Source: Ostreococcus lucimarinus | Taxonomy: Eukaryota | Strand: one strand, 5' to 3' | Assembly (NCBI GenBank): GCA_000092065.1 | Contig: CP000584.1 | DNA length: 64,000 nucleotides | Shown: positions 1,021-40,231 of the stretch, piece after piece | Layout: each line of letters opens with the position of its first letter | Position numbering within the stretch: position 1 is the stretch's first letter | The notes under the pieces: model-generated | Told to the model about the DNA's origin: nothing | Databases searched by the model: none | The model's input: only the letters and a program-made list of their open reading frames with translations | Made by a program: the position numbers and the translations under genes

Positions 1021-4000
1021 ATGAGCGAAAAGATGAAATCGGCGTTTCAAGCGGCCAAGTCAAAGGTTTCGAGCGCGGTCGAGACGACCAAGGCGCGGTC
1101 GAAGGCGCGACAGACGTCCGCGGGGGGGAGCATGGATGTCGATGCGTCGTTAAGGGGGGTCGGGGACGACGGAGACGCGCGCGAGGCGCTGCGCGAGGCG
1201 AGGGAACACGCGAATTCGTTGGAGCGAGCGCAGGCGGCGCTGAACGGGGAGATGCGGCGGATGGCGAATGAATACGAAAGGGTGCGCGGTGAGCTCGATG
1301 CGGTGAGCCGGGAGAAAGAAGAGGTTCGACAACGAGCGTCGGCGGCGTGGACGGAGATGACGGCGGAGATCGAGGCGTTGAAGGCGGAGCTCGAGCGGGC
1401 TCGAGGCGGGAAAGCGGAGGGCGACGCGGGAGAAGACGCCATAGATGAACTCAAGCAAAAGGCGCACTTGGAGGCGCGAGCGATTAAAAAGGTTCTTATT
1501 GAAGACAGGGAAAAGTTTGCCGCGACGGAGGCTGAGTTGAGGGGGAGAATTAAAGAATTAGAGGACGCGCTCGCGAATGTCGAGGAAGGCGCCAAGTACA
1601 CAAGCGAGGCGAACGCGGAGCTATCGTCCAACGTGCAGACGTTGGAGTCGCAAGTTTCTTCGCTTCGGATAGAAGTGAACGAGAAAAACGCCACGGTAGA
1701 GCGTTTGGAGCGAGCGAGCGCGGCGCCGTCTGAAGAAGTTGCGGCGGCACGTGCGGAGACTCGACAGACGCAAGCCCAAGCCGAAAGACTCGAGTCTTTG
1801 CTCGAGGTCACGAAGTCGGAACTCGAAAAGACGACGTCTTCGCTCGAACAAGAAGAAGCGAACGGCGCTAAAACACGCGAAGCCGTGGTGTCGCTAGAGT
1901 CTCAGTTAGCGGCGGTAACAGCAGAGCTGCAAGCAAGTACAGACGCTCAAGCGTCCACAAGCTCTGCAACAGACGAACTCAAGGCAGAATTAGCCGCCGC
2001 ACGAGTCGAGTACGGCCAAGTACGGTCCGAGCTCGAGGCGAAATCGAAGGCGCTGGAGCAGGCGCAGGCTTCAAGCGTGGCGACAAGTGAGCTCGAGGCG
2101 GAGCTGGCTTCCACGCGCTCTGAGCTCGAGGCGAAATCGAAGGCGCTGGAGCAGGCGCAGGCTTCAAGCGTGGCGACAAGTGAGCTCGAGGCGGAGCTGG
2201 CTTCCACGCACTCTGAGCTCGAGGCGAAATCGAAGGCGCTGGAGCAGGCGCAGGCTTCAAGCGTGGCGACAAGTGAGCTCGAGGCGGAGCTGGCTTCCAC
2301 GCGCTCTGAGCTCGAGGCGAAATCGAAGGCGCTGGAGCAGGCGCAGGCTTCAAGCGTGGCGACAAGTGAGCTCGAGGCGGAGCTGGCTTCCACGCGCTCT
2401 GAGCTCGAGGCGAAATCGAAGGCGCTGGAGCAGGCGCAAGCTTCAAGCGTGGCGACAAGTGAGCTCGAGGCGGAGCTGGCTTCCACGCGCTCTGAGCTCG
2501 AGGCGAAATCGAAGGCGCTGGAGCAGGCGCAGGCTTCAAGCGTGGCGACAAGTGAGCTCGAGGTGGAGCTGGCTTCCACGCACTCTGAGCTCGAGGCGAA
2601 ATCGAAGGCGCTGGAGCAGGCGCAGGCTTCAAGCGTGGCGACAAGTGAGCTCGAGGCGGAGCTGGCTTCCACGCGCTCTGAACTCGAGGCGAAATCGAAG
2701 GCGCTGGAGCAGGCGCAGGCTTCAAGCGTGGCGACAAGTGAGCTCGAGGCGGAGCTGGCTTCCACGCGCTCTGAGCTCGAGGCGAAATCGAAGGCGCTGG
2801 AGCAGGCGCAGGCTTCAAGCGTGGCGACAAGTGAGCTCGAGGCGGAGCTGGCTTCCACGCACTCTGAGCTCGAGGCGAAATCGAAGGCGCTGGAGCAGGC
2901 GCAGGCTTCAAGCGTGGCGACAAGTGAGCTCGAGGCGGAGCTGGCTTCCACGCACTCTGAGCTCGAGGCGAAATCGAAGGCGCTGGAGCAGGCGCAGGCT
3001 TCAAGCGTGGCGACAAGTGAGCTCGAGGCGGAGCTGGCTTCCACGCGCTCTGAGCTCGAGGCGAAATCGAAGGCGCTGGAGCAGGCGCAGGCTTCAAGCG
3101 TGGCGACAAGCGAGCTCGAGGCGGAGCTGGCTTCCACGCACTCTGAGCTCGAGGCGAAATCGAAGGCGCTGGAGCAGGCGCAGGCTTCAAGCGTGGCGAC
3201 AAGCGAGCTCGAGGCGGAGCTGGCTTCCACGCGCTCTGAGCTCGAGGCGAAATCGAAGGCGCTGGAGCAGGCGCAGGCTTCAAGCGTGGCGACAAGCGAG
3301 CTCGAGGCGGAGCTGGCTTCCACGCGCTCTGAGCTCGAGGCGAAATCGAAGGCGCTGGAGCAGGCGCAGGCTTCAAGCGTGGCGACAAGTGAGCTCGAGG
3401 CGGAGCTGGCTTCCACGCGCTCTGAGCTCGAGGCGAAATCGAAGGCGCTGGAGCAGGCGCAGGCTTCAAGCGTGGCGACAAGCGAGCTCGAGGCGGAGCT
3501 GGCTTCCACGCGCTCTGAGCTCGAGGCGAAATCGAAGGCGCTGGAGCAGGCGCAGGCTTTGTCAAGTGAGACGCAGCAACGGTTGGAAACCGCTCGCAAC
3601 ACATCGCAGTCGGAAGTATCCGTGCTGAAGCAAGAGCTTGTAGAAAAGAATCATGCTCTTGCGGAAGCGCAAGCGTCGAGTGTGAACGTGGAAGAAATTC
3701 AAGCCACGACTCAGTTGTTGGAATCTCAGCTTGTTGCAGTGAAAGCAGAGCTTGAAGCAAAGAGCGCAGAGCTCGACGCACAGAAGGAGGCACTCATGCG
3801 CGCCGAAGCGACGAAGAGTTCAAGCGCAGAAGAAGTCGAAACAATGAAAACGACGTTAATGTCTCAACTTGCGATGGTGCAAGACGAACTCGCGTCAAAG
3901 ACCGAGGCGCTCAAGAAGGCAGAGTCTGCGTCGAACGCTGCAGCACAAGAAAAAGCAGCCGCGAAGGAATTGTTCGATTCACAATTGAGCTCTGCGCGAG

Positions 4001-5058
4001 CGGAAATTGAATCAAAGACGAGTGAGGCACAAAGTGCATCGGACGCAAGGGACGCCCTGCAGTCCAAGGTGAGCGCCCTTCAAGGCGAGCTTCAGGCGAA
4101 ACATGAAGCGCTCGAGCTTGCGCAAGCCTCAACGGGATCAGCGACGGACGAACTCCAATCGAGCCTCGATGCGGCTCGTCAACGAGCCCTTGGTTTTGAA
4201 ACCGATCTCGAAGCGCTTCGTGCAGAGCTCGCGGCTCTTCGTGCAGAGCTCGCGGATAAAACGCAAGCGCTCACCGCGTTTGAGCAGAATGCCTCCGCCG
4301 CGAGGACGGAGCTACAAGAGAAACTCGAGAAGAGTCTTGAGCACGCTCGAGCAGAGAATCAACAAGTAACGGAAAAACACGAGGAAGTGCAGGCGACGTT
4401 ATTGACGGATGTGGAATCGCTCAAGGCGAATCTAGAGTCGGCAGAGACTCGTAATGCCGTCATGGAAGAGGAGCTTCGCTTGACAAACGAAGCGCTGAAT
4501 CGTTCATCCGTCGAAGCCTCGGGCATTGAAAGTGTTCGCACACAGCTCGCTGAGGTCAGCGAGCGTTTCAAAGAGTCCGAAATGGAAAGATCCACTCTCG
4601 AGCAAAGTCTGCGCGTCGCGAACGAGCGCCTGACCTCGTTGGAAGAACGACTCAAAGTTGCTGAGGAGAACGATGCCTCCGCCGCCGAGGCGCTCCGTGA
4701 AGCCAATGAACAAGCCGCGAAGGCGAAGGATAACGTCGCGTCCATCGCCTCCGTGAGCGCCACCCAATTCGCTCAAGAGCGTCAAATGATGAAAAATGCC
4801 CTGAGCGAGCTCCAAACCGAGCGTGACATCCTCGTCAAGATGCTCAAAACTTTTCACGCGCACGGCGTCGTGCACTCGACGAGCGAGACAGCGTCTCATC
4901 GCGACGCCAGCGAGAGCGTCTTCGGGGACGGCCCTTCGGAGTTCGCCCGGCGTTTCACCGATTCCGCGTCATTAGCTGGCGTGTTCACCCCGAGAAAACG
5001 CGCCCCGTACGTTGACCTCGACCGGCAGTCCCCCAACTCACCGCGCTCGCCCAACTGA
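1021..5058 (+). CDS. Large coiled-coil protein rich in Ala/Glu/Leu (1345 aa) with an internal 31-aa tandem repeat array; tropomyosin/SMC-tail-like filament-forming protein
   Basis: One uninterrupted ORF from the ATG at 1021 to the TGA at 5056-5058. The composition gives a heptad-like E/A/L/K/Q pattern throughout. The central third is about 16.5 near-identical 31-aa units (SELEAKSKALEQAQASSVATSELEAELASTR). No enzymatic motif was recognised. Confidence 0.6.
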   Translation: MSEKMKSAFQAAKSKVSSAVETTKARSKARQTSAGGSMDVDASLRGVGDDGDAREALREAREHANSLERAQAALNGEMRRMANEYERVRGELDAVSREKEEVRQRASAAWTEMTAEIEALKAELERARGGKAEGDAGEDAIDELKQKAHLEARAIKKVLIEDREKFAATEAELRGRIKELEDALANVEEGAKYTSEANAELSSNVQTLESQVSSLRIEVNEKNATVERLERASAAPSEEVAAARAETRQTQAQAERLESLLEVTKSELEKTTSSLEQEEANGAKTREAVVSLESQLAAVTAELQASTDAQASTSSATDELKAELAAARVEYGQVRSELEAKSKALEQAQASSVATSELEAELASTRSELEAKSKALEQAQASSVATSELEAELASTHSELEAKSKALEQAQASSVATSELEAELASTRSELEAKSKALEQAQASSVATSELEAELASTRSELEAKSKALEQAQASSVATSELEAELASTRSELEAKSKALEQAQASSVATSELEVELASTHSELEAKSKALEQAQASSVATSELEAELASTRSELEAKSKALEQAQASSVATSELEAELASTRSELEAKSKALEQAQASSVATSELEAELASTHSELEAKSKALEQAQASSVATSELEAELASTHSELEAKSKALEQAQASSVATSELEAELASTRSELEAKSKALEQAQASSVATSELEAELASTHSELEAKSKALEQAQASSVATSELEAELASTRSELEAKSKALEQAQASSVATSELEAELASTRSELEAKSKALEQAQASSVATSELEAELASTRSELEAKSKALEQAQASSVATSELEAELASTRSELEAKSKALEQAQALSSETQQRLETARNTSQSEVSVLKQELVEKNHALAEAQASSVNVEEIQATTQLLESQLVAVKAELEAKSAELDAQKEALMRAEATKSSSAEEVETMKTTLMSQLAMVQDELASKTEALKKAESASNAAAQEKAAAKELFDSQLSSARAEIESKTSEAQSASDARDALQSKVSALQGELQAKHEALELAQASTGSATDELQSSLDAARQRALGFETDLEALRAELAALRAELADKTQALTAFEQNASAARTELQEKLEKSLEHARAENQQVTEKHEEVQATLLTDVESLKANLESAETRNAVMEEELRLTNEALNRSSVEASGIESVRTQLAEVSERFKESEMERSTLEQSLRVANERLTSLEERLKVAEENDASAAEALREANEQAAKAKDNVASIASVSATQFAQERQMMKNALSELQTERDILVKMLKTFHAHGVVHSTSETASHRDASESVFGDGPSEFARRFTDSASLAGVFTPRKRAPYVDLDRQSPNSPRSPN
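2029..3559. repeat. Tandem array of a 93-bp unit, about 16.5 copies, more than 97 percent identical, in frame within the coiled-coil CDS
   Basis: The unit gagctcgaggcgaaatcgaaggcgctggagcaggcgcaggcttcaagcgtggcgacaagtgagctcgaggcggagctggcttccacgcgctct is repeated head to tail. The only variants are cgc/cac (Arg/His), one gcg/gtg, one gag/gaa and agt/agc synonymous changes. The array generates long spurious ORFs in three other frames (1947..3602 -, 1979..3793 -, 2087..3628 +). Confidence 0.9.
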
Positions 5059-6587: not shown

Positions 6588-9353
6588 TTAACGCGGGGAA
6601 TATCCACCCGACGTTCTCACTTGCTCTGGTGAGGCGTTTGCCAAAATCGGACTCACTCCATACGGATCTCCATACGGATCAGCCATTTCTGGGGTGTCGT
6701 TGAAAGAGTTTTCTTTATCGACAAACAATGGTGACACCATGTCGACGTTTGGCGTGCAGCCACCGTCGTACTCTCCAGTCGTATTCAGTGCGGCGACGGC
6801 ATTGAGGGCTTGACGAGCTGCTTCTAAATCATCTTGACTTCCGGCAACATCCATATCACCTGAAGCAGTTCGATCCAACTCCATGGAATCACGCCATTGT
6901 ACGCTCGTACGCAACATGGACTCCTCACCGATTGCCTCCGTCACCATGGGGTTGATTTCATCATCCTCGTTCAAATCAGCTGAGTCATCACCCATGTCGA
7001 TGTACACTTCCACTGGCTTGGGACTTCCCTTGATCATCACCGGTGTCGTTCTCGGACCTAGCGACGAGGTATTGGATACGTTACTGTCCGTCTTTCGGTG
7101 CCCAAACTCAGGCGTGTCCACTGCTTCGGCGCCCGTGTTCAGGTCGACCGATAATTTATTTTCGTTCACCGGCTCCAAAGGTGAGCGGTAAAACGGCGCA
7201 GGAGATCGTGCGACGTTATTACTAGCGCCAGGACTTTTAATCGGCGTCTTCTTTAGCCCGCTGAACAGTTGCCTTCCACCAATCGCGTTGTTGATGGCGC
7301 TGACGCTGGGGTAGCCCAAGGGCGGACCCTCGGGAACAAAAGGATTCCACAACGCGGCGGCGCTCATCCAGTTCACGGCGCTGATCATCCACAAGAAGTT
7401 GACCGCCACAGCGATGCTCAAATAGCTGTAATAGTGCTCCTCGGCGACGAGCGAGACAACGATGAGCATGATACCGGCCTCTATGGCGAGAACGCCGATG
7501 ATGACAGCGAATGGAATCAAAGCGTCTTCTCGTGTGAGCCCCCAAAAGGATTTCCTCGGGCACGACGTGGAACGCCACCAAAACTTGCCCTTGCGGTCAG
7601 TAGAGTTAGAGACGTACGAGGACGGCGGCCAGATCAAGCAAGCAACCAATAGCTTGACGTCATCGAGGACGGGCAACTTCCAAGTCCGTCCCCAAATTTT
7701 AAACTCGCGCAATTCGCAAAACTTTTCCCAAACCTTTCGGTCGTGAGTGCCCGGGAGACGGATCTTCAACAAACCGAGGATAACGCACGCGTGGAAGAAA
7801 AATACAAGCATGACATACGGACCTGTGACCGCGGCAAAAAGGCCAATTGTGCAGATTCGTGCCGCGAGCTCAAAGAAGCGGTAGCACGCCTTGGCCATCA
7901 TTTCAGACAGGTGTGCCTTGTGCATCTTCCAGTACTCTCTCCACGAGTACGCGGGCGGTTTTTCGTGCAAGTCTAACGAAACAAAACACAAGGTACCAGA
8001 GGTGATCGAACCCGCGACGGCCAGGAACAGGAGCATGTCGAATCCCTCCCGACCCGGGCAGACGCTGGTGGGAGACGAGCACGAGATTCCAATGTACGCC
8101 TGGAGCGTCGCCATGGGGAGCGTTAAGAAGATGGTATCCACGAGTTGCATCCCACGAAGATCCATTTCAGCCTTTCTCGCTCGCACATCATTCGTTCGGA
8201 GCGCACGCCAAGCGGCAAAGGCGGTGCCGAGCTGCAACATCGCGCACGCGGCACCAAAGCGCCTGACGACGACTTTGAAATCGTACTTGCTGAATCCAAA
8301 GACTTTTTGGTCCTTGCCCACACTTCCTTTCGCCGGTTTCTTGGGCATGGGATAGTGAAGCACCCAGTATCCAGTAATACACGCCGCCGAGAAGACGAAA
8401 AACGTCAAAACCATGCTGAACCACAACCAAGATCCCGCTCGAGCGAAGCGATGAAGTTCGCGCACCAACTGCGTCTTGGAGTAAAAGTCGAGCAAGATTC
8501 CAACTACGAGCATCAAGCGCTGCACGATGTTCAACGACGGACCCAGGCACTCGATACGCTCAAGAACTTGACGAGAGATTGGAATCGGGGTCATGGGAAC
8601 GACGTTCGCCGGGAGAGACATGCGCATCGCTGCCCGCTTCTTTGCCGCCGCGCTCGGACGAGACGGCGTTGCGCCGGCATCAATGGAATTTCCGAGCACT
8701 TTATTCTCGAACGGTGCCGTCATGGGCGAACCAATGGACGCCCACATGCCACCAGGCTTCATATTACTTCTCGGCTCGACGTTACTCCGACGGAACCGAT
8801 CCACCGGTGACATGAGCGGCGTTTGACTTCCCGCCGCTTCCTGTTGACTGGCTTCCTCGTCCTCATCCGCGCCCTCGGGGGTGCCGCCGAGGTTGACCTC
8901 GTCCTCGCATTCGTCTCCATCATCTCGTGCCGACGTCATCTTACGCTCCGGGGTCTCAAGTCCGTCCATATCCTCCTCCGCGCCCTCCTCAAGCTTCGCC
9001 GCCGCCTCCTCGATGGCGGCGACGCGCGCGCACACTCGCACCGGCGGTGTCTGCGTAGCCGGTCGTCCCATCCCTGGACTCTCCGCCATCGACCCCCACG
9101 CATCATCACCATCCTCTGCATCCTCAAATCCATCATCGTTCGCCGTCACGGGCGATTCCTCACCTCCGCTCGTCCTCGGCGTCCCCTCCACGCGCACCTC
9201 GCAGTCCTCGTCGTCGTCCTCGCGCGCGTCCTCGCTCGCCATCGACGACGTCACCGCGCGTCGTCCGTCGCTCGGCGTCGTCACCGGCGACGATTCTGCG
9301 TCGCACGCGCGCTTCCGAGCGCTCGCGCGCGTCGCCCGTCGCGTCGTCGGCAT
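6588..9353 (-). CDS. Polytopic membrane protein (at least 8 predicted TM helices) with an acidic N-terminal domain and a Ser/Pro-rich C-terminal tail; family not recognised
   Basis: A 950-codon ORF. The ORF-track start at 9440 is GTG; the first ATG (MPTTRRATRAS) is at 9353..9351. The central part holds hydrophobic helices (LMLVVGILLDFY, WLWFSMVLTFFVFSAACITGYWVL, YVMLVFFFHACVILGLL, IPFAVIIGVLAIEAGIMLIVVSLV, VAVNFLWMISAVNWMSAAALW). Local AT content is higher there, as expected for real TM coding. Confidence 0.5.
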   Translation of the reverse strand: MPTTRRATRASARKRACDAESSPVTTPSDGRRAVTSSMASEDAREDDDEDCEVRVEGTPRTSGGEESPVTANDDGFEDAEDGDDAWGSMAESPGMGRPATQTPPVRVCARVAAIEEAAAKLEEGAEEDMDGLETPERKMTSARDDGDECEDEVNLGGTPEGADEDEEASQQEAAGSQTPLMSPVDRFRRSNVEPRSNMKPGGMWASIGSPMTAPFENKVLGNSIDAGATPSRPSAAAKKRAAMRMSLPANVVPMTPIPISRQVLERIECLGPSLNIVQRLMLVVGILLDFYSKTQLVRELHRFARAGSWLWFSMVLTFFVFSAACITGYWVLHYPMPKKPAKGSVGKDQKVFGFSKYDFKVVVRRFGAACAMLQLGTAFAAWRALRTNDVRARKAEMDLRGMQLVDTIFLTLPMATLQAYIGISCSSPTSVCPGREGFDMLLFLAVAGSITSGTLCFVSLDLHEKPPAYSWREYWKMHKAHLSEMMAKACYRFFELAARICTIGLFAAVTGPYVMLVFFFHACVILGLLKIRLPGTHDRKVWEKFCELREFKIWGRTWKLPVLDDVKLLVACLIWPPSSYVSNSTDRKGKFWWRSTSCPRKSFWGLTREDALIPFAVIIGVLAIEAGIMLIVVSLVAEEHYYSYLSIAVAVNFLWMISAVNWMSAAALWNPFVPEGPPLGYPSVSAINNAIGGRQLFSGLKKTPIKSPGASNNVARSPAPFYRSPLEPVNENKLSVDLNTGAEAVDTPEFGHRKTDSNVSNTSSLGPRTTPVMIKGSPKPVEVYIDMGDDSADLNEDDEINPMVTEAIGEESMLRTSVQWRDSMELDRTASGDMDVAGSQDDLEAARQALNAVAALNTTGEYDGGCTPNVDMVSPLFVDKENSFNDTPEMADPYGDPYGVSPILANASPEQVRTSGGYSPR

Positions 9354-9653
9354 CCGCGCGCGTCGATGTCCCGGCCTCGTGTCGTTCCCCCGTTTTTCGA
9401 CGCCGCGCGCGGTCGCGATGCGGTCGTCTTCGTCGCGCACGCTCGAGCGCGAGGATGAATAATATTAATCTCTGAGCGCTCGCGCGGCGTCTCGAGTCGA
9501 GGCGTCGCGCGCGGGGACGGTGAGCGTCGCGCAGTTGCGCGGCGTCGAGAGGACCGTTTGTATCCCGCTCGAAGAATTTGATGTGCTTTACAACGTGTAA
9601 CTGTTTACCTATATACGGCATTCGGACATACGGAGTATCATGCCACACGTGTA

Positions 9654-9779: not shown

Positions 9780-10997
9780 ATGGGTCGCGTCATCCGAGGT
9801 TGCCGTAAGGGTAAAGGGTCGGTGTTTACCTCCCACACCCACACCCGCAAGGGCGCGGCGAAGCATCGCCAACAGGTGCGTCGACGACGACCGGCGCGCG
9901 ACGCCACGGGACGCGCGATGGCACCGCGATCGCGACGCGCGCTCGAGGATTGGCGCGCCGTGCGCGCGCGATCGACCGCTCGAAGCGCGGTGATGGGTGA
10001 TGGAATATGCGTGTTATCGAATCGCGTCGACGCGCGCGATGGGGACGCGTCGGCGCGCGCGCGACGGGGTGAAACGTGGATGGAGTTGTGAAAGACCTAA
10101 GACGGACGACTGACGATGGGACTCGACGCCGCGACGCAGGATTACGCCGAAAGACACGGTTACGTCAAGGGCGTGGTGACGGATATCATTCACGACCCGG
10201 GTAGAGGCGCGCCGTTGGCCAAGGTGCGTGTTTGCGATGTGTTCGACGGCGCTGACGCTCGATCGTCCTCGACGGGAGTAGGGCTTTGGACGCGCGAGGC
10301 GCGCGCGCGCGGAGGGACGTGCGTTCGACGCGAGGGAAGATTCGAACGCCCCTGTGCGTGTTTGAATCAGTGACTGACGATGTTATAAACTTTTTCGTGC
10401 GATGTGTAGATGACGTTCCGTCACACCAAGCGTTACGGTCTCCAAAAGGAGCTCTTCATCGCGGCGGAAGGGACGTACACGGGTCAATTCGTGTACGCCG
10501 GTAAGAAGGCGCAGTTGGCTATTGGTAACATCTTGCCGATCAGCTCTATGCCGGAGGGTACGATCATTTGCAACGTTGAGTCCAAGCTCGGTGATCGTGG
10601 TACCTTGGCCAAGGCGTCTGGCGAATATTGCATCTTGATCTCGCACAACCTCGATACGGGTTTCTCCCGCATCAAGCTTCCGTCTGGGGCCAAGAAGACG
10701 ATTCCTTCCGGTTGCCGCGCGACGGTTGGTCAAGTTTCGGGTGGTGGTCGCTGCGATAAGCCCATGCTTAAGGCTGGTGCGAGCTACCACAAGTACAAGG
10801 TCAAGCGCAACAGCTGGCCGAAGGTTCGTGGTGTGGCTATGAACCCGGTTGAGCACCCTCACGGGGGTGGTAACCACCAGCACATCGGTCACGCGTCCAC
10901 CATTCGTCGCGACCGTTCGGCTGGTGCCAAGGTCGGTCTTATTGCCGCCCGACGCACTGGTCGTCTTCGTGGGGCGAAGCCTTCCGAGGCTGACTAG
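9780..10997 (+). CDS. RPL8: 60S ribosomal protein L8 (uL2); three exons: join(9780..9875, 10140..10223, 10410..10997)
   Basis: Exon 1 reads [32 protein letters not shown]. Exon 2 reads [28 protein letters not shown]. Exon 3 reads [35 protein letters not shown]...[48 protein letters not shown]. The spliced product is 255 aa and aligns with plant and human RPL8 with no gaps at the junctions. Both introns are GT...AG with an identical AG|GTGCGT donor. Confidence 0.85.
9876..10139 (+). other. RPL8 intron 1 (264 nt, GTGCGT...CGCAG)
   Basis: Removing it restores the conserved AKHRQQ|DYAERHGY junction, equivalent to AKFRSLDFGERNGY in plant RPL8. Confidence 0.75.
10224..10409 (+). other. RPL8 intron 2 (186 nt, GTGCGT...TGTAG)
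   Basis: Removing it restores GAPLAK|MTFRH, equivalent to GAPLARVTFRH. The exact acceptor could shift by a few nt. Confidence 0.6.
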
Positions 10998-33720: not shown

Positions 33721-36714
33721 ATGATGATCTCTGGCGCGTCGGCGACGCTGCGACGCGACGCGACGGCGCGATGCGCGGGCGGGAGGACGACGCGCGCGCG
33801 CGCGACGATGAAACGCGCGATGGTGCGTCGGCGCGCGGTGTCGTCGACGGGAAACGCGGAGAAGGATGCGCGATCGGCGGTGTCGATCGAGATCGATACG
33901 ACGACGGAGGCGGATTACACGGTGATCCACATTCGAGACGCGCCGAATAAGCCCGGGACGCTGCGAGTGATCACCACGGCGCTGGCGGACTTGGGGTTGA
34001 ATATCGATAAGGCGATCGTGGACGCGGCGAACGACGATCGGGTGAGCGATTGCTTTCACGTGACGGATACGAGCGGGGCGAAGGTGACGGACGCGGAGGA
34101 CGTGGAGAACATTCGGACGTGCTTGGCGATGATTTTGAAGACACACTTCCAGAGCGGGAGCGATGTGGCGCGACACGATGGGGATGAACGTCGGAGCTCG
34201 GCGCCGCAAGGTACGGATGAGCGAAGACAGCACGACTTGTTGTATTCGCTCATGGACAGGTATCTGCGAAACGACGTGATGAGCGTGCAGGAGTCAATCG
34301 TGAATCACGTCGAGTACACGATGGCGAGAAATAGGTACCAGTTTGATGACTTTGAGGCGTACAACGCGGCCGCATTTTCGGTTCGCGATCGTCTCATCGA
34401 AAGCTGGAACGACACGCAGCAATACTTTCGAGAAAAGAGCCCGAAGCGCGTGTACTACATGTCGATGGAGTTTTTGATGGGTCGCTCGTTGTTGAACTCG
34501 CTGTACAACTTGGACATCAAGCCGCAGTACACCGAAGCGTTGCGTCAGCTTGGATACGAGTTAGAAACGCTCGTAGATAAGGAACGCGACGCCGCGCTCG
34601 GGAACGGTGGTTTAGGTCGCTTGGCTTCTTGCTTTTTGGACTCGATGGCGACTCAGGATCTTCCGGCGTGGGGGTACGGCATTCGATACCAGTATGGTAT
34701 GTTCCGTCAAACCGTGAACGATGGCTTCCAGCACGAGCACCCCGATTACTGGCTGAACTTTGGTAATCCTTGGGAAATCGAGCGTCCATACATCAGCTAT
34801 CCCATCAAGTTTTACGGCGGCGTAGAGAAACAAATCATCGACGGCCACGAAGTCAACAAGTGGGTGGGTGGCGAAGATATCAGCGCCGTAGCGTACGACA
34901 ACCCGATTCCGGGCTGGAACACGCCAACGACGATCAACCTCCGATTGTGGAGCGCGAAACCATCGCGGGAGTTTGACTTGGAGTCGTTTAACACCGGGGA
35001 TTACGTGCAAGCGATTTTGGCAAAGCAGCGCGCTGAAACGATTTCATCCGTGCTCTACCCGGACGATCGTACGTACCAAGGCAAAGAGCTTCGCTTGAAA
35101 CAGCAATACTTCATGGTGTCTGCCACCATCCAGGACATTATTCGCCGCTACTTGGTGAATCACGACTCGTTTGACGAGTTCCCGAACCAAGTCGCGGTGC
35201 AGCTGAACGATACGCATCCTTCTCTCGCCATCCCGGAGTTGTTGCGCCTGCTCATCGATGAGCATGGGCTTTCGGACACGAAGGCTTGGGAAATCACTTC
35301 GAAGGTCTTCAGTTTCACCAACCACACCGTGCTCGTGGATGCGCTCGAGAAATGGCCGGTCGATTTGCTCGAAAAGGTGCTCCCGCGCCACATGCAAATC
35401 ATTTACGAAATCAACTGGAAATTCATCAGCGATCTCAGCCAGAAGCGCGGCGAAGACTTTGCGCTCTTTGGTCGTACGAGCATCATCGAAGAAACTACGG
35501 AAGGAAAACTCGTGCGCATGGCGCACCTCGCCATGGTCGGCTGTCACACCGTGAATGGCGTGGCCGAGGTCCACAGCGAACTTCTCAAGACGCGCATGTT
35601 TCCAGACTTTTACGAGTTGGCGCCGGAGAAGTTTCAAAATAAGACAAACGGCGTCACCCAACGCCGCTGGCTCGCCTTCAGTAATCCGGCCCTCCGTGAT
35701 TTGATCTCCAGCAAACTTGGCGGCGACTCTTGGATTCGCGAATTGGACATGCTCCATGATTTGGACAAGTACGCTGAAGACCCCGAGTTCCAAGCGCAGT
35801 GGCGCGCCATCAAGCTCGAGAATAAGAAGAAGTTAACGAAATTGATCGAGGAAAAGACGGGGACAGTGGTGAGCCCAAACGCTTTGTTTGACATTCAAGT
35901 CAAGCGCATCCATGAGTACAAGCGTCAGTTGCTCAACGTATTCTCTGTGATTCACCGGTACAATAAGATCAAGGCGGCGACGCCGGAGGAGCGCAAAGAA
36001 ATGGTACCGCGCGTCGTCGTCATCGGCGGCAAGGCTGCGCCGGGTTACGACATGGCCAAGCGCATCATCAAGCTCGTCTGCGCGGTGGGGGAGAAGGTGA
36101 ACAACGACCCTGACGTGGGTGACTTGCTTAAGCTCGTTTTCATCCCCGACTACAACGTCAGTAGCGCCGAAGTCATCGTACCCGCTGCGGAGCTGTCCCA
36201 GCACATCTCCACCGCCGGCACGGAGGCGTCGGGAACGTCCAACATGAAGTTTGCCATGAACGGTTGCTTGATCATCGGCACCATGGACGGTTCCAACGTC
36301 GAAATCGCAGAAGAGATCGGCAAACGTAACATGTTCATCTTCGGTGCGAACTCGGCAGATGTCCCAATCTTGCGCTCGGAGCGCGCGCGCTTCAAGCCGC
36401 CGCCCGAATTCGACGGCATAGTCGAACAGATTCGCGGCGGCGCCTTTGATTGGGCAGACTTCCTCAATCCGGTGTGCGACGCCGTGCACGGTGGTGCCGA
36501 TTACTACTTGCTCGCAAACGACTTCGAGGATTACATCCGCGCCCAAGACCTCGTCGATGAAACATACAAGGATCAGGCCAAGTGGACCACGATGAGCATC
36601 AAATCCACCGCCGGTTCCGGCAAGTTTAGCAGCGACAGAACGATTCGCGAGTACGCTAAGGATATCTGGGGCATCGAACCGTGCCGCCGTCCGGAACCTG
36701 GAAATCCGCGATAA
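33721..36714 (+). CDS. Alpha-1,4-glucan (glycogen/starch) phosphorylase, GT35, with an N-terminal ACT domain
   Basis: ATG at 33721. Residues about 66-135 (YTVIHIRDAPNKPGTLRVITTALADLGLNIDKAIVDAANDDRVSDCFHVTDTSGAKVTD) fit the ACT fold. The canonical phosphorylase follows: FSVRDRLIESWNDTQQYF, YYMSMEFLMGR, EAALGNGGLGRLASCFLDS, TNHTVLVDALEKWP, PLP site region GTEASGTSNMKFAMNGCLIIGTMDGSNVEI. Confidence 0.9.
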   Translation: MMISGASATLRRDATARCAGGRTTRARATMKRAMVRRRAVSSTGNAEKDARSAVSIEIDTTTEADYTVIHIRDAPNKPGTLRVITTALADLGLNIDKAIVDAANDDRVSDCFHVTDTSGAKVTDAEDVENIRTCLAMILKTHFQSGSDVARHDGDERRSSAPQGTDERRQHDLLYSLMDRYLRNDVMSVQESIVNHVEYTMARNRYQFDDFEAYNAAAFSVRDRLIESWNDTQQYFREKSPKRVYYMSMEFLMGRSLLNSLYNLDIKPQYTEALRQLGYELETLVDKERDAALGNGGLGRLASCFLDSMATQDLPAWGYGIRYQYGMFRQTVNDGFQHEHPDYWLNFGNPWEIERPYISYPIKFYGGVEKQIIDGHEVNKWVGGEDISAVAYDNPIPGWNTPTTINLRLWSAKPSREFDLESFNTGDYVQAILAKQRAETISSVLYPDDRTYQGKELRLKQQYFMVSATIQDIIRRYLVNHDSFDEFPNQVAVQLNDTHPSLAIPELLRLLIDEHGLSDTKAWEITSKVFSFTNHTVLVDALEKWPVDLLEKVLPRHMQIIYEINWKFISDLSQKRGEDFALFGRTSIIEETTEGKLVRMAHLAMVGCHTVNGVAEVHSELLKTRMFPDFYELAPEKFQNKTNGVTQRRWLAFSNPALRDLISSKLGGDSWIRELDMLHDLDKYAEDPEFQAQWRAIKLENKKKLTKLIEEKTGTVVSPNALFDIQVKRIHEYKRQLLNVFSVIHRYNKIKAATPEERKEMVPRVVVIGGKAAPGYDMAKRIIKLVCAVGEKVNNDPDVGDLLKLVFIPDYNVSSAEVIVPAAELSQHISTAGTEASGTSNMKFAMNGCLIIGTMDGSNVEIAEEIGKRNMFIFGANSADVPILRSERARFKPPPEFDGIVEQIRGGAFDWADFLNPVCDAVHGGADYYLLANDFEDYIRAQDLVDETYKDQAKWTTMSIKSTAGSGKFSSDRTIREYAKDIWGIEPCRRPEPGNPR

Positions 36715-36757
36715 CCTTCTTCCCACGTTTTCACTATTGCTGTATCAGTAACTACCG

Positions 36758-36762
36758 CTGTA
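36758..36762 (+). terminator. TGTAA poly(A)-signal candidate about 44 nt after the phosphorylase stop codon
   Basis: ccgcTGTAAttcc. Confidence 0.35.
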
Positions 36763-36893
36763 ATTCCATCTACACGCATCGTCCGTGCGCGCCGACCCCT
36801 CGCGTCCCGGTCAACTGTTTACTTTCAAAACGTCATCGTCGTCATCACCGGTCACCCTCAAACCTCGGCGTCGCGCGCTCGCGCGCCCCGGTC

Positions 36894-38846
36894 ATGATTC
36901 CAGACCTCTTACTCGCCCTCATGGGCGTCCCCGGCGACGTGTTCGAGCTCGATCCGACGTCGAACGACGCCGTCGTCGACCGACTCAGAGTCGCCGATGG
37001 CTTGCACTTTATAAAACGACACGAAGTCGAACGACTGAACGCCCTCGTGCGCGTCGGCGGCGCGTACCGAACGCTCGAACGCGTGACGACGATCGAAAGC
37101 ACGAAAGCGTCGTTCGCGACGACGCCGCAGTCGCTGTACCGACGAGCGCTCGCGATCGGAATTCAAGAAAGATTGCGCGAGTACGAGGAGGAAATTTTAA
37201 AACTGGAACAAGAGACGCTGCGACGAGGAACGACGAGCGGAGCGGTGAATGCGATCGAAAGCGCGCTGAGCGATGATGGTGCGGTGTTGACGATGATGTG
37301 CGAACGCTTTGTCTCGGTGTTTGAAGGGGAGAATGCGCTGAGGGGGGGAGATGTGATTCGACAAACGCGCGACGCGTGGCTTCGAGCGGGACATCCCGCG
37401 GCGCGCGAGGCGTGCGGGAGATTGTATTGGAAGGTGATGCAGGTGATGATGCAGCAATTGTTAGGGTGGTGTGCGCACGGGACGATCGTGGATCCGTACG
37501 ATGAGTTTTTCGTGCGGACGATCGCGCGGAAAGAGGGGTACGAGGTGAAGGATGACGCGAAGGATGACGGGAGCGTGATTTGGCACGAGAGCCATCGCGT
37601 GGCATTGGAACGTTTGCCGCCGGGGGTGGAGCTGTCCACGGCAGAGTCGGTGTCGTTCATCGGACGTGGCGTGCGTATACTGACACATCCGACGAGAGGT
37701 GGGAATATGCGTGGTCATTTCGATGCGGATGGGTACGCCATGCGCGCGACGTCGCGCATTCGGCGTCTCGCCGCGGCGGAGTCATTCGATCCTCGCGACT
37801 TTGAAGCGGAGGTGGAGGCTATGCGCTCGGAGATCGCGGCATCGTTGGGTGAGGTGTTGTTGAACGATTCTGGCTTGATATCGCACTTGAACGCGATGTG
37901 TGGGTTCTACTTTCTCGGAAAGGGTGACTTTTATACCACGTTTTTGGACGAGGCGCGCGAGCTCTTCTCGTTGCCACCCAAACCGGGAAGCGCGACGCGC
38001 GAGCTGTCCACGCCGTTCGCGCAAGCCGCCGTGAGTACGATCGTCGACGAAGCATTAGCATCAAGGTTTAGATTAGCGTACACGTCTGCGTTGACGCAGC
38101 AGTCTGAAGATGAAAAATCTTCGACAACCGCGACGCCGTCTAGCGCGTTTGTGCCTCGCGTGCGTATTCCCGAGTATGACGCTTGGGACGGCGTTAGCCT
38201 CGAGTGTGAGGTTCACTGGCCCATGGGTATTTTTCTCACAAACGACACCCTGGATAGATACAAGACGATATTTAAGTACCTCTTCCGGCTCAGGCGCGTG
38301 CACTTTGATCTTCAAGATGCGTGGATTCATTTACGTCGAAGCGGTTTGACGCGGACGCTTCGACTTCGTCACGTGATGGATCAGTTGATTGAAAACTGGC
38401 GCACGTATATTCAAGTCGATGTCATCGAAACGGAGTTCAAGAAAATGCTCGATAAGATTGCTGAAACGACGGATTTTAACAAGTGTGCGCTCGCACACCG
38501 GCAATATCTCGCCGCCATCATGGCGCACTCATTTCTCGACGTCGGTTCAATCATGACAATTTTCGAAGACATTTTCGGGCTCGCGCGAGAGCTGTGCGAG
38601 ACGAGCGCGCGATACGCCAACGGACAACCGCTACCTGCAGATTGGGACGAGCGCATCGCGTATCTGACTCGGCAGTTTGAAAAGAACTCTGTTGAACTTT
38701 ACGACAACTTGCGCGGCGGTTACGTCGTAGAACTGCCCGAATTGCGAGCGTTGTTGATGCGATTCAATTTCAACGAATTCTTCGAGAACACGACGTCGAT
38801 GGGGGTGAACTTGACCGCGATGAAGTTCGATAACCTAGATATGTAA
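36894..38846 (+). CDS. GCP4: Gamma-tubulin complex component 4 (GCP4/Spc97-Spc98 family)
   Basis: ATG at 36894. MIPDLLLALMGVPGDVFELD matches human GCP4 MIHELLLALSGYPGSIF. Family core: LISHLNAMCGFYFLGKGDFYTTFLDEA and KTIFKYLFRLRRVHFDLQDAWIHL. The 650-aa length fits GCP4. The TAA stop is embedded in a TGTAA signal at 38842-38846. Confidence 0.85.
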   Translation: MIPDLLLALMGVPGDVFELDPTSNDAVVDRLRVADGLHFIKRHEVERLNALVRVGGAYRTLERVTTIESTKASFATTPQSLYRRALAIGIQERLREYEEEILKLEQETLRRGTTSGAVNAIESALSDDGAVLTMMCERFVSVFEGENALRGGDVIRQTRDAWLRAGHPAAREACGRLYWKVMQVMMQQLLGWCAHGTIVDPYDEFFVRTIARKEGYEVKDDAKDDGSVIWHESHRVALERLPPGVELSTAESVSFIGRGVRILTHPTRGGNMRGHFDADGYAMRATSRIRRLAAAESFDPRDFEAEVEAMRSEIAASLGEVLLNDSGLISHLNAMCGFYFLGKGDFYTTFLDEARELFSLPPKPGSATRELSTPFAQAAVSTIVDEALASRFRLAYTSALTQQSEDEKSSTTATPSSAFVPRVRIPEYDAWDGVSLECEVHWPMGIFLTNDTLDRYKTIFKYLFRLRRVHFDLQDAWIHLRRSGLTRTLRLRHVMDQLIENWRTYIQVDVIETEFKKMLDKIAETTDFNKCALAHRQYLAAIMAHSFLDVGSIMTIFEDIFGLARELCETSARYANGQPLPADWDERIAYLTRQFEKNSVELYDNLRGGYVVELPELRALLMRFNFNEFFENTTSMGVNLTAMKFDNLDM

Positions 38847-38850
38847 AATA

Positions 38851-38922
38851 GAATGAGTGTTCATTACAACCCACTATGAAGAAATTGAATGAGTGTTCGT
38901 TACAACCCACTATGAAGAAATT
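38851..38922. repeat. Perfect-but-one 36-bp tandem duplication (2 copies) covering the last 7 codons, the stop and the TGTAA signal of the minus-strand M20 peptidase gene
   Basis: gaatgagtgttcattacaacccactatgaagaaatt / gaatgagtgttcgttacaacccactatgaagaaatt. Copy 2 (38887-38922) contains the real stop at 38900-38902. Copy 1 lies downstream in the 3' UTR between the convergent GCP4 and M20 genes. Confidence 0.8.
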
Positions 38923-40231
38923 CGAGCGCGTACATCGCGTGCAAAGCGACGCCAGACGTCAAGACGCTTTCATCCAGAATGTACTTCGTGCTATGCAAAG
39001 GATGCGTCGCACCGGCGGTTTCGTTGTACGCTCCGAGCCACATCATGGCAGATGGGTAAGTTTCCCCGAAAAACGAGAAATCTTCCGCGGGCATGACTGG
39101 CACGACGTCGCGCGTGCTCTCGCTTCCGAACAGTTGCGCGGCGACGTTCATCGCCAACCCTGCGGCTCGCGGGTCGTTCACCGTCGGTGGATACGGAATT
39201 CGCTTCACGCCATTGTGCTCAGGTTCAAAAGATGTCGCTGCCGTGCAACCGTGCGCGCTGGCGATGGCAGAAGCCATGTCGGCAATTTTCTGTTGAAATT
39301 TCGCAAAAGTCTTCGGATTGAGCGCTCGCAACGTGCCTTGCAAACTCGCCGTGTCTGGCATGATGTTGCTCGCCGTTCCCGAGTTGAACACGGTGACGCT
39401 GATCACCACGCTATCTAACGGATCCGTCAATCGACTCACGAGCGTCTGCAACGCGGTGACGATCGCGCTACCCGCGACGATGACGTCCACGTTGTTGTGC
39501 GGCACCGCCGCGTGTCCGCCGCGTCCGACGACGACGACGTCGAAGCTCCCCGCTCCAGCCATGATCGTTCCACCGCGCGTGCCCATCGTCCCACTCGGCA
39601 TTTCAGGATACGGCCAATTATGTAATCCAAACACGCTTTCAATCGGCGGTTTCAAATCCAGCATTCCCGTCGTCCCGTCGCTCGGCCGCAACATTTCCTT
39701 CGCCCCCGCCCCGCCTTCCTCCGCCGGTTGAAATATGAACCGCACCACTCCCGGCACGGACGTCTCATCCGCGTCGTACCTCGCCTTTATCACCTTCGCC
39801 GCGCCGAGTAACATCGCCACGTGTCCATCGTGTCCACACGCGTGCATTTTTCCATCGTTCTCGCTCGCGTACGCCAACCCGGTGTCCTCGCGCAGCGGCA
39901 GCGCGTCCATATCCGCTCTCAACCCCACGCTTCGTTCGCCTCGTCCGACGCGCGCGACGATCCCCGTGGACGTCACTCGGTCGTATTCGATCCCGTGCGC
40001 GTCGAGCTCGCGCGCGATGACGTCCGCGGTGGCGCGTTCGGTCCACATGAGTTCGGGATTTTTGTGGATTTCTCGTCGCAGGTCGACGACGTAATCGTGC
40101 GTCGCGCGCGATTGCGACAGGATTTCGCGCGCATCGACGTTTGATGACGACGCGGCGATATCGCGCAGCGTCGTCGCGTCCAGGGCGAGCGCCGCGGGGA
40201 CGTGGGCGAGGAAGAACAGCGCTCTGAGCAT
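38900..40231 (-). CDS. Peptidase M20D-family amidohydrolase (ILR1/IAA-amino-acid hydrolase-like) with a signal peptide
   Basis: ATG at 40231 (MLRALFFLAHVPAALALD). Motifs: MHACGHDGHVAMLLGAAKVIKAR, VRFIFQPAEEGGAGAKEM, LHNWPYPEMPSGTMGTRGGTIMAGAGSFDVVVVGRGGHAAVPHNNVD. The stop TAA at 38900-38902 lies inside a minus-strand TGTAA. Confidence 0.85.
   Translation of the reverse strand: MLRALFFLAHVPAALALDATTLRDIAASSSNVDAREILSQSRATHDYVVDLRREIHKNPELMWTERATADVIARELDAHGIEYDRVTSTGIVARVGRGERSVGLRADMDALPLREDTGLAYASENDGKMHACGHDGHVAMLLGAAKVIKARYDADETSVPGVVRFIFQPAEEGGAGAKEMLRPSDGTTGMLDLKPPIESVFGLHNWPYPEMPSGTMGTRGGTIMAGAGSFDVVVVGRGGHAAVPHNNVDVIVAGSAIVTALQTLVSRLTDPLDSVVISVTVFNSGTASNIMPDTASLQGTLRALNPKTFAKFQQKIADMASAIASAHGCTAATSFEPEHNGVKRIPYPPTVNDPRAAGLAMNVAAQLFGSESTRDVVPVMPAEDFSFFGETYPSAMMWLGAYNETAGATHPLHSTKYILDESVLTSGVALHAMYALEFLHSGL

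Follow-up and report, generated by a model that had tools for sequence, protein, structure and literature searches.

The window considered in this work is a stretch of 64,000 nucleotides (nt) of the marine picoalga Ostreococcus lucimarinus (contig CP000584.1, assembly GCA_000092065.1). Close to its beginning lies a gene for a rod protein of 1345 amino acids (aa), predicted to be all-helical, whose central part is occupied by about 16.5 nearly identical copies of a 93-bp unit. In the sister species, a homologous module forms arrays of its own at the same site of the gene. Judged from sequence, such a pattern is what concerted evolution, or recurrent amplification of a single rod module, would leave behind. 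Coding minisatellites are well known from repetitive structural proteins, and the array would not surprise a specialist in repeat evolution; what is added here is the presence of parallel, species-specific arrays at the same site in sister species. Because of them, the central rod is regarded as a long-standing site of repeat turnover and not as the product of a one-off event. The array is probably explained as a coding minisatellite in which a rod module of about 31 aa has been amplified and kept alike within a lineage-restricted helical protein that would act as a tether or spacer. Of this explanation, the part on evolution and structure is considered very likely, while the tether or spacer role, drawn from analogy, is tentative.

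Anatomy and Reading Frame of the Array

Tandem Repeats Finder (TRF) reported a tandem array of period 93 at positions 2029–3559 of the window, with 16.5 copies, 98% matches, 0% indels and a score of 2978. Cutting the array unit by unit gave 16 full units of exactly 93 nt each and a partial unit of 43 nt, without indels. The array lies in phase 0 of a plus-strand open reading frame (ORF) that starts with ATG and encodes the 1345 aa, and both stops and frame-breaking variants are absent from it (Table 1). The in-frame array, its coordinates, its approximate copy number and the length of its ORF, all proposed in a first-pass annotation of the DNA, were thus confirmed by TRF and by unit cutting. 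The near-identity of the units, also claimed there, was borne out by measurement: the full units are 99.2% identical to their consensus, with a mean pairwise difference of 1.33% per site. The edges of the array are sharp, because the flanking 93-nt blocks on either side agree with the unit consensus at only 21–32 of their 93 positions.

The 1488 nt of the full units contain 12 substitutions at five sites, every one of them a transition, and the resulting seven unit haplotypes follow each other in an aperiodic order along the array. Arg/His and Ala/Val variants had been correctly recognized at first reading, but three synonymous variant sites had been overlooked. The variants had also been proposed as a record of the order of duplication events, a proposal that is not supported. 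With variation confined to five sites, and with its most frequent form, a CpG transition, dispersed along the array, homoplasy or gene conversion has probably shaped the pattern. The variants at unit positions 71 and 89 destroy a CpG and that at position 60 creates one; the Arg>His change, found here and there in the array, may have arisen repeatedly by CpG mutation instead of tracing the order of duplication. A 12-mer, GAGCTCGAGGCG, built of overlapping GAGCTC and CTCGAG palindromes, occurs at two places in every unit, positions 1 and 61. The peptides expected from the array include ELEAK and SKALEQAQASSVATSELEAELASTR, plus a read-through variant of SKALEQAQASSVATSELEAELASTR produced by the Arg>His change.

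The unit is free of stops in four of the six frames, and for this reason the other long ORFs that overlap the array (Table 1) are interpreted as by-products of the repeat. Only frame 0 of the plus strand runs on into flanks that are conserved in the alignment of orthologues. The coding nature of the array, asserted at first reading, is therefore upheld both by the lack of frame-breaking variants among the units and by orthology through both flanks in this frame.

Homologous Arrays in Sister Species

The order rod gene, TraB-like gene, XK-related gene (the last on the minus strand) is conserved in the window, in contigs L002/L003, in L015 and in L016, and because this gene order is identical their rod genes are considered orthologues. 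L015, a contig of 926,890 nt whose name carries the word "pilon" and which is presumably a long-read, polished assembly, belongs to the species of protein P0004. At positions 6896–8374 of this contig, about 12.6 copies of a 117-bp (39-aa) unit with 99–100% identity are found at the same site as the array of the window. In a third species, the contig L016, with a MEGAHIT-style name, shows 2.1 copies of a 117-bp unit (98% identity) at this site, a count that is a lower bound in a short-read contig.

Within the arrays, unit identity is 98–100% (98.7–100% across the tested arrays), versus 68–73% DNA identity between the unit consensuses of the three species. Nevertheless, the units of the three species are regarded as homologous, because the alignment scores of their consensuses (23–58) are far above those of shuffled sequences (at most 7). 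Units are accordingly more alike within a genome than between species, which is the pattern by which concerted evolution is recognized, and the species-specific units have in common the protein core ELE-(A/S)(K/Q)S-AL-QAQ-(A/S)SS. The early suggestion of a very recent expansion or ongoing concerted evolution agrees with these values in its general sense, but "very recent" holds with respect to the species splits and not necessarily to the splits between strains, because the intra-array divergence (1.3%) is not below the between-strain divergence outside the array (0.1–0.7%).

Shorter orthologues, of 596–730 aa, have been deposited as well. In the P0004 clade they contain one, two or three copies of the 39-aa unit (599, 638 and 674 aa, respectively), and in the P0003 clade one or two copies of a 70-aa unit. 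Compared with P0032, the protein P0079, like it a distant orthologue, has an exact duplication of 52 aa, ALESQVATLQAELAEKSQELEGAVASTSSIHEIEAKLVQALDAVQASDAAKQT, towards the C-terminal end of the rod's variable part and away from the site of the other arrays. An expansion confined to the species of the window, which orthologues of half the length had seemed to suggest, was abandoned as a reading in view of L015, from which the short orthologues are seen to be collapsed assemblies. The L015 array has irregularities of its own: at 7130–7347 one unit lacks 16 nt (a 101-bp unit), by which the frame is broken and the gene split into ORFs of 432 and 645 aa, and the unit at 7582 has an insertion of 3 nt (an extra Leu). 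The 16-nt deletion, located around 7238, could be a polishing artefact in the repeat or a real disruption.

Copy Number and Behaviour of the Array in Assemblies

The species of the window is common in environmental data, where, for example, L001 departs from the window at 2 of 1643 nt. When metagenome contigs were scanned with a 40-nt pattern of the unit, nine contigs from the JGI were recovered, all from this species (99.3–99.9% identity to the window, up to 12 kb). Six of them span both flanks, with 1.46, 2.46, 3.46, 3.46, 5.46 and 6.46 units, and among the remaining three one ends and two begin within the array. Similarly, two Logan contigs (L013 and L014, with a TraB-like protein identical to that of the window) begin at window positions 3530 and 3533, that is, 27–30 nt inside the last partial unit, and equal the window exactly over their first 3 kb. 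The read sets SRR23274481 and SRR1179203 likewise carry identical flanks. At the protein level, all 14 members of the cluster of P0001, which is near-identical to the window protein, are C-terminal fragments. The warning that the array is easy to mis-assemble was fully justified by these contigs and by the contrast between L015 and the versions with one to three copies.

The short counts in the window's species, all from what look like short-read assemblies, are most likely due to collapse and not to polymorphism, because in the P0004 species the long contig holds about 12.6 units against the one to three copies of the short-read assemblies. The array of the window, on the other hand, is favoured to be genuinely resolved, given the aperiodic order of its seven haplotypes and the similar size of the array in the sister species. 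Contigs L010–L012 contain a unit haplotype with A at both position 3 and position 89, 86 nt apart in one unit, which is absent from the 16 full units of the window, and this hints that array composition differs between strains.

These results have practical consequences. The public protein sets for this family are wrong, as they contain short-read versions of 596–674 aa in place of the roughly 12.6 units of the long polished contig, and the records for the window's species are limited to C-terminal fragments; long reads are needed for any comparative or proteomic study of the gene. If copy number is polymorphic, the array would allow sensitive typing of strains in this abundant marine picoalga.

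Conservation and Distribution of the Protein Family

In the alignment of orthologues, a conserved N-terminal region of about 300 aa and a conserved C-terminal region of about 200 aa enclose a variable middle, and both ends are far better conserved than this middle. The first 40 aa or so of the N-terminus are basic and rich in Ser and Ala, with the conserved motif MK-A-(N/Q)AAK-K---AV. Downstream of the array, and along the rod of all the orthologues, degenerate copies of the module motif recur according to a scan with a hidden Markov model (HMM) of the module, which is partly circular as its seeds come from these same proteins, one of them from segment 3560..4443 itself. The C-terminal alignment has 67 invariant columns and includes the near-invariant stretch KDNVASIAS-SATQFAQERQMMKNAL-ELQTERDILVKMLKTF. 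Next comes a polar disordered tail, in which S(L/I)A(G/S)VFTP(R/Q)K(R/K) is found together with Ser-Pro motifs.

A search with residues 850–1345 recovered 34 proteins, all of them metagenomic, and a C-terminal profile run against 1.84 billion representatives found six family members only, in addition to P0036. The latter (3280 aa, nine stretches) was discarded as a relative, since it appears to be a generic coiled coil. With the N-terminal region as query, low-complexity candidates dominated and a single match was obtained, P0247, a 432-aa fragment on L015 through which that contig was reached. On these sequence searches, the family appears to be lineage-restricted, with members seen only in marine picoalga-like sequences. 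An exact look-up in a collection of 15 billion proteins did not return the 1345-aa protein or two of its neighbours. In Pfam, at permissive thresholds, only sub-threshold coiled-coil noise was obtained besides TBCA_PH, and this family (2e-12, above the cut-off) was taken as a compositional match, as it has no individually significant domain and falls on the repeats. A PDB profile search with the conserved C-terminal domain gave no relative (best E = 0.13), and a scan of viral contigs for this domain found none, and thus no sign of a virus-borne copy. Automatic JGI naming labelled P0001 and others "chromosome segregation ATPase" and some orthologues "early endosome antigen 1"; these names, together with "SbcCD ATPase subunit" and "DUF3084", were rejected as coiled-coil false positives. 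Searches of the literature on Ostreococcus tandem repeats, coiled coils, minisatellites and concerted evolution yielded nothing on this gene.

Comparison with Known Repeat and Rod Proteins

Coding repeats are familiar from yeast FLO adhesins, streptococcal M and alpha-C proteins and Plasmodium CSP. Coding minisatellites under concerted or birth-and-death evolution have been described in filaggrin (PMC5225520) and in the staphylococcal SD-repeat proteins (PMC3324548). The array described here resembles such cases in its in-frame, head-to-tail units, in their near-perfect identity within a genome and divergence between species, and in its short-read collapse, for which these repeats are known. 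Unit number, labile in such cases, may vary here too. However, the classic examples are mostly surface or secreted proteins under immune or adhesion selection, whereas the present protein looks like an intracellular helical rod of a free-living picoalga, with no signal peptide or transmembrane segment recognizable by eye.

Three groups of long rod proteins are also worth comparing. The golgins and EEA1 are built like the present protein: a brief N-terminal motif is conserved, the helical rod is long and little conserved, and at the C-terminus about 100 conserved aa precede a disordered tail. Nevertheless, the rod protein has neither a GRIP, GRAB or FYVE domain (Pfam, E ≤ 1) nor a C-terminal transmembrane anchor, and homology to golgins is not detectable (Golgin_A5, E = 0.0036, 17 bits for a cut-off of 31.7). 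The resemblance to SMC proteins, or chromosome segregation ATPases, is limited to long coiled-coil segments, since ATPase heads and hinge are missing from a protein made up entirely of helix and disordered tails; SMC_N and the hinge gave no Pfam match, and the only related hit was AAA_13 in the orthologue P0032 (E = 0.0012, 18 bits for a cut-off of 36), located on coiled coil. Finally, the rods of lamins or of NMCP/CRWN proteins are similarly long and have a short basic head. The tail of the present protein has a basic PRKR-type patch that overlaps a TP-x-K motif, together with SP motifs, which by eye look like a nuclear localization signal with cyclin-dependent kinase sites. In contrast to lamins, it shows no intermediate-filament rod match (PF00038, E = 0.062, 13.4 bits for a cut-off of 40) and no match to the lamin-tail domain.

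Structure of the Rod and Proposed Explanation

Both flanks of the array have a clear heptad-like periodicity in their hydrophobic residues, with a period of 3.52–3.53 and a power of 4.0–4.2 (shuffle maximum 1.2–1.4); in the N-terminal third, the period is 3.52 and the power 4.19, versus a shuffle maximum of 1.16. AlphaFold2 predicted residues 300–470, which contain more than four units, as one uninterrupted helix (residues 2–170, mean predicted local distance difference test score, pLDDT, of 91 in the best of five models), and the C-terminal region as a helix at residues 2–89 with pLDDT above 90, followed by a disordered tail.

In the explanation favoured here, one module of about 31 aa of the central rod would have been amplified to about 16.5 copies. 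Unequal exchange between sister chromatids or homologues, slippage, and gene conversion between 93-bp units would expand, contract and homogenize the array. In a coiled coil the rise per residue is about 0.148 nm. Each additional unit of 31 residues would then add about 4.6 nm of helix, and the whole array about 76 nm to a rod of roughly 185–200 nm. The conserved N-terminal motif and the C-terminal helix with its tail are candidates for partner-binding ends, and the span of such a tether or spacer would change in quantized steps. The proposal made at first reading, that copy number tunes the length of a filament or spacer, is reasonable as a hypothesis. A tether or spacer is favoured because the arrangement of a conserved short N-terminal motif, a long variable rod, and a conserved C-terminal helix and tail resembles that of long coiled-coil tethers. 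An uncharacterized, lineage-restricted rod with conserved ends and a repeatedly inflating middle is, in any case, a good candidate for studying the importance of rod length in one of the smallest kinds of eukaryotic cell.

Several observations weigh against this explanation. Inside the array, the hydrophobic power is shared by the periods 3.88 and 3.44, only harmonics of 31 being possible there, and a unit of 31 aa is not a whole number of heptads; for these two reasons a canonical coiled coil is not established in the array. Each unit has only five strongly hydrophobic residues. The other four of the five AlphaFold2 models of residues 300–470 reached a mean pLDDT of only 63–73, and all the predictions are of monomers, that of the array having been made from a single sequence. 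The description of the gene as coiled-coil at first reading is borne out for the protein by its heptad-periodic flanks and is compatible with the predicted helicity of the unit; inside the array the periodicity is ambiguous. In addition, the 16.46 units of the window are reproduced by no independent assembly. Should the L015 deletion of 16 nt prove genuine, the strain concerned can do without an intact long array. Lastly, conservation of the core ELE-KS-AL-QAQ-SS across the species-specific units is a hint of some role for the module beyond passive spacing.

Alternative Explanations

Other explanations differ from the coding minisatellite in the history or in the reality of the array. Each species could have amplified a single ancestral module in a recent burst of its own, with neither an ancestral array nor long-term concerted evolution, as the different unit lengths (93 versus 117 bp) and array boundaries would suggest: the array of P0004/L015 adjoins the segment IRAEVATLQGEL, and that of the window is followed by about 215 aa of degenerate modules. 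The P0003 clade, moreover, has only an older, diverged 70-aa pair without TRF signal, the distant P0032 and P0034 show only degenerate modules, and the duplication of P0079 is located elsewhere. Independent bursts are nevertheless thought unlikely, as three coincident events would be needed to place near-identical arrays of a homologous module at the same site in three species, and the seeming absence of arrays in other orthologues is unreliable because short-read assemblies collapse them. Alternatively, the repeat could be real but its copy number and unit order in the window a product of assembly, over-expanded, under-expanded or mis-ordered. Every other assembly of the species disagrees with the window (the six spanning contigs have 1.46–6.46 units), three more contigs break off or start within the repeat and the Logan contigs start at 3530 and 3533, all the P0001 cluster members (14/14) are C-terminal fragments, and the L010–L012 haplotype (A at positions 3 and 89) is missing from the window. 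However, seven haplotypes in aperiodic order are typical of a real array that has been resolved and not of a padded one, and the 927-kb polished contig of the sister species has about 12.6 units in place of the one to three of its short-read assemblies, so that an assembly product is judged improbable.

With regard to function, each unit could be a site for binding a partner, in such a way that copy number sets the valency of a docking platform and not the length of a rod. Units of four clades retain the core ELE-(A/S)(K/Q)S-AL-QAQ-(A/S)SS but differ elsewhere in sequence and in length (31, 39 and 70 aa), degenerate versions of this motif are found repeatedly along the rod of every orthologue, and, as these lengths leave remainders of 3, 4 and 0 when divided by 7, heptad phase is not what is conserved. 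Against this, there is no known partner, the motif is of low complexity (A/E/S/Q/L) and typical of a generic coiled coil, and the HMM scan that detects its copies is partly circular, with seeds from the same proteins; multivalent docking is accordingly rated as distinctly unlikely. A bolder version of the tether reading, to which very little credence is given, would make the protein a picoalga-specific ruler or tether, such as an organelle-spacing or nuclear-envelope filament, whose span is set by fast array turnover and whose changes in copy number from one species or strain to another adaptively rescale cell architecture or alter the susceptibility to an external agent. The parallel arrays (93 bp × 16.5 and 117 bp × 12.6) would then reflect selection for a long rod and not neutral slippage, and a span of about 0.2 micrometre would be a sizeable fraction of a cell of about 1 micrometre. 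The array could, finally, be non-coding satellite DNA or part of a decaying pseudogene. That the unit is stop-free in four of six frames makes an open frame by itself weak evidence, and the L015 orthologue is frame-broken by its 16-nt deletion. Still, all 16 full units are exactly 93 nt long with no indel or stop, the ORF of 1345 aa has a conserved start and ends in a conserved C-terminus, every collapsed metagenome version has n + 0.46 units and so remains in frame, and the protein sequence of the flanks is conserved between species. A non-coding origin can hardly be entertained on such evidence, and the coding minisatellite is retained as the preferred explanation.

Features of the Gene and Its Genomic Neighbourhood

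Table 1. Features of the rod gene and of its repeat array (window positions, or unit numbers for the variants).
Feature	Position	Strand	Details
Gene for 1345-aa all-helical rod protein (predicted), ATG to stop	1021..5058	+	Syntenic orthologue of P0003, P0004, P0095
Conserved N-terminal third, aa 1–336	1021..2028	+	Alignment; heptad-periodic helix after first ~40 aa
Full 93-bp (31-aa) units, n = 16	2029..3516	+	Unit ELEAKSKALEQAQASSVATSELEAELASTRS; haplotype order ABAACDAEBBAFGGAG
Terminal partial unit, 43 nt	3517..3559	+	Equals the unit consensus exactly
Variant, unit position 89 G>A (CGC>CAC, Arg>His)	Units 2, 6, 9, 10, 12		
Variant, unit position 60 T>C, synonymous	Units 12, 13, 14, 16		
Variant, unit position 71 C>T (Ala>Val)	Unit 6		
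Variant, unit position 39 G>A, synonymous	Unit 5		
Variant, unit position 3 G>A, synonymous	Unit 8		
Old degenerate copies of the module, e.g., ELVEKNHALAEAQASS, GELQAKHEALELAQASTGSATDEL	3560..4443	+	Translation, module HMM scan, periodicity 3.53
Conserved C-terminal region, one long helix then disordered tail	4444..5055	+	Alignment, AlphaFold2
Artefactual ORF over the array, not a gene	1979..3793	-	Ends just outside the array
Artefactual ORF over the array, not a gene	1947..3602	-	Ends just outside the array
Artefactual ORF over the array, not a gene	2087..3628	+ (frame +1)	Ends just outside the array

The neighbouring ORFs are of eukaryotic type and include an XK-related protein, a PHD/SNF2 protein, an SF1 helicase and a starch phosphorylase with an ACT domain. 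The window has an average G+C content of about 60%, and its long, uninterrupted ORFs are tightly packed. The named relatives of the starch phosphorylase are all from green algae or plants, with at most 65% identity, and the matches at 66–100% are marine metagenome or MMETSP sequences. In this protein, encoded at window positions 33721–36714, the ACT domain is N-terminal (aa 73–121), and the combination of ACT and phosphorylase domains is also recorded in many green-algal and plant homologues.

Some minor observations were made on other genes of the window. The XK-related gene at 6588–9440 (minus strand) encodes 950 aa in the window and in L013, and 884 aa in L014 (3056–5710), although the first 3 kb are identical; the difference may be due to the start site or to an indel between samples. 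Another example is the gene for the ribosomal protein uL2, which was called in two pieces 36 nt apart, one with Ribosomal_L2_N (85 aa) and the other with Ribosomal_L2_C (195 aa). These pieces are located at about 10116–10373 and 10410–10997 of the window (derived from L013 6587–6844 and 6881–7468), and the gap between them is probably a short intron in an otherwise intron-poor stretch. Finally, an AT-rich unit of 36 bp is repeated 2.1 times (95% identity) at window positions 38846–38922, between the converging ORFs 36681..38846 (plus strand) and 38900..40231 (minus strand). This repeat, conspicuous in its GC-rich surroundings, may be a shared 3' end or terminator region.

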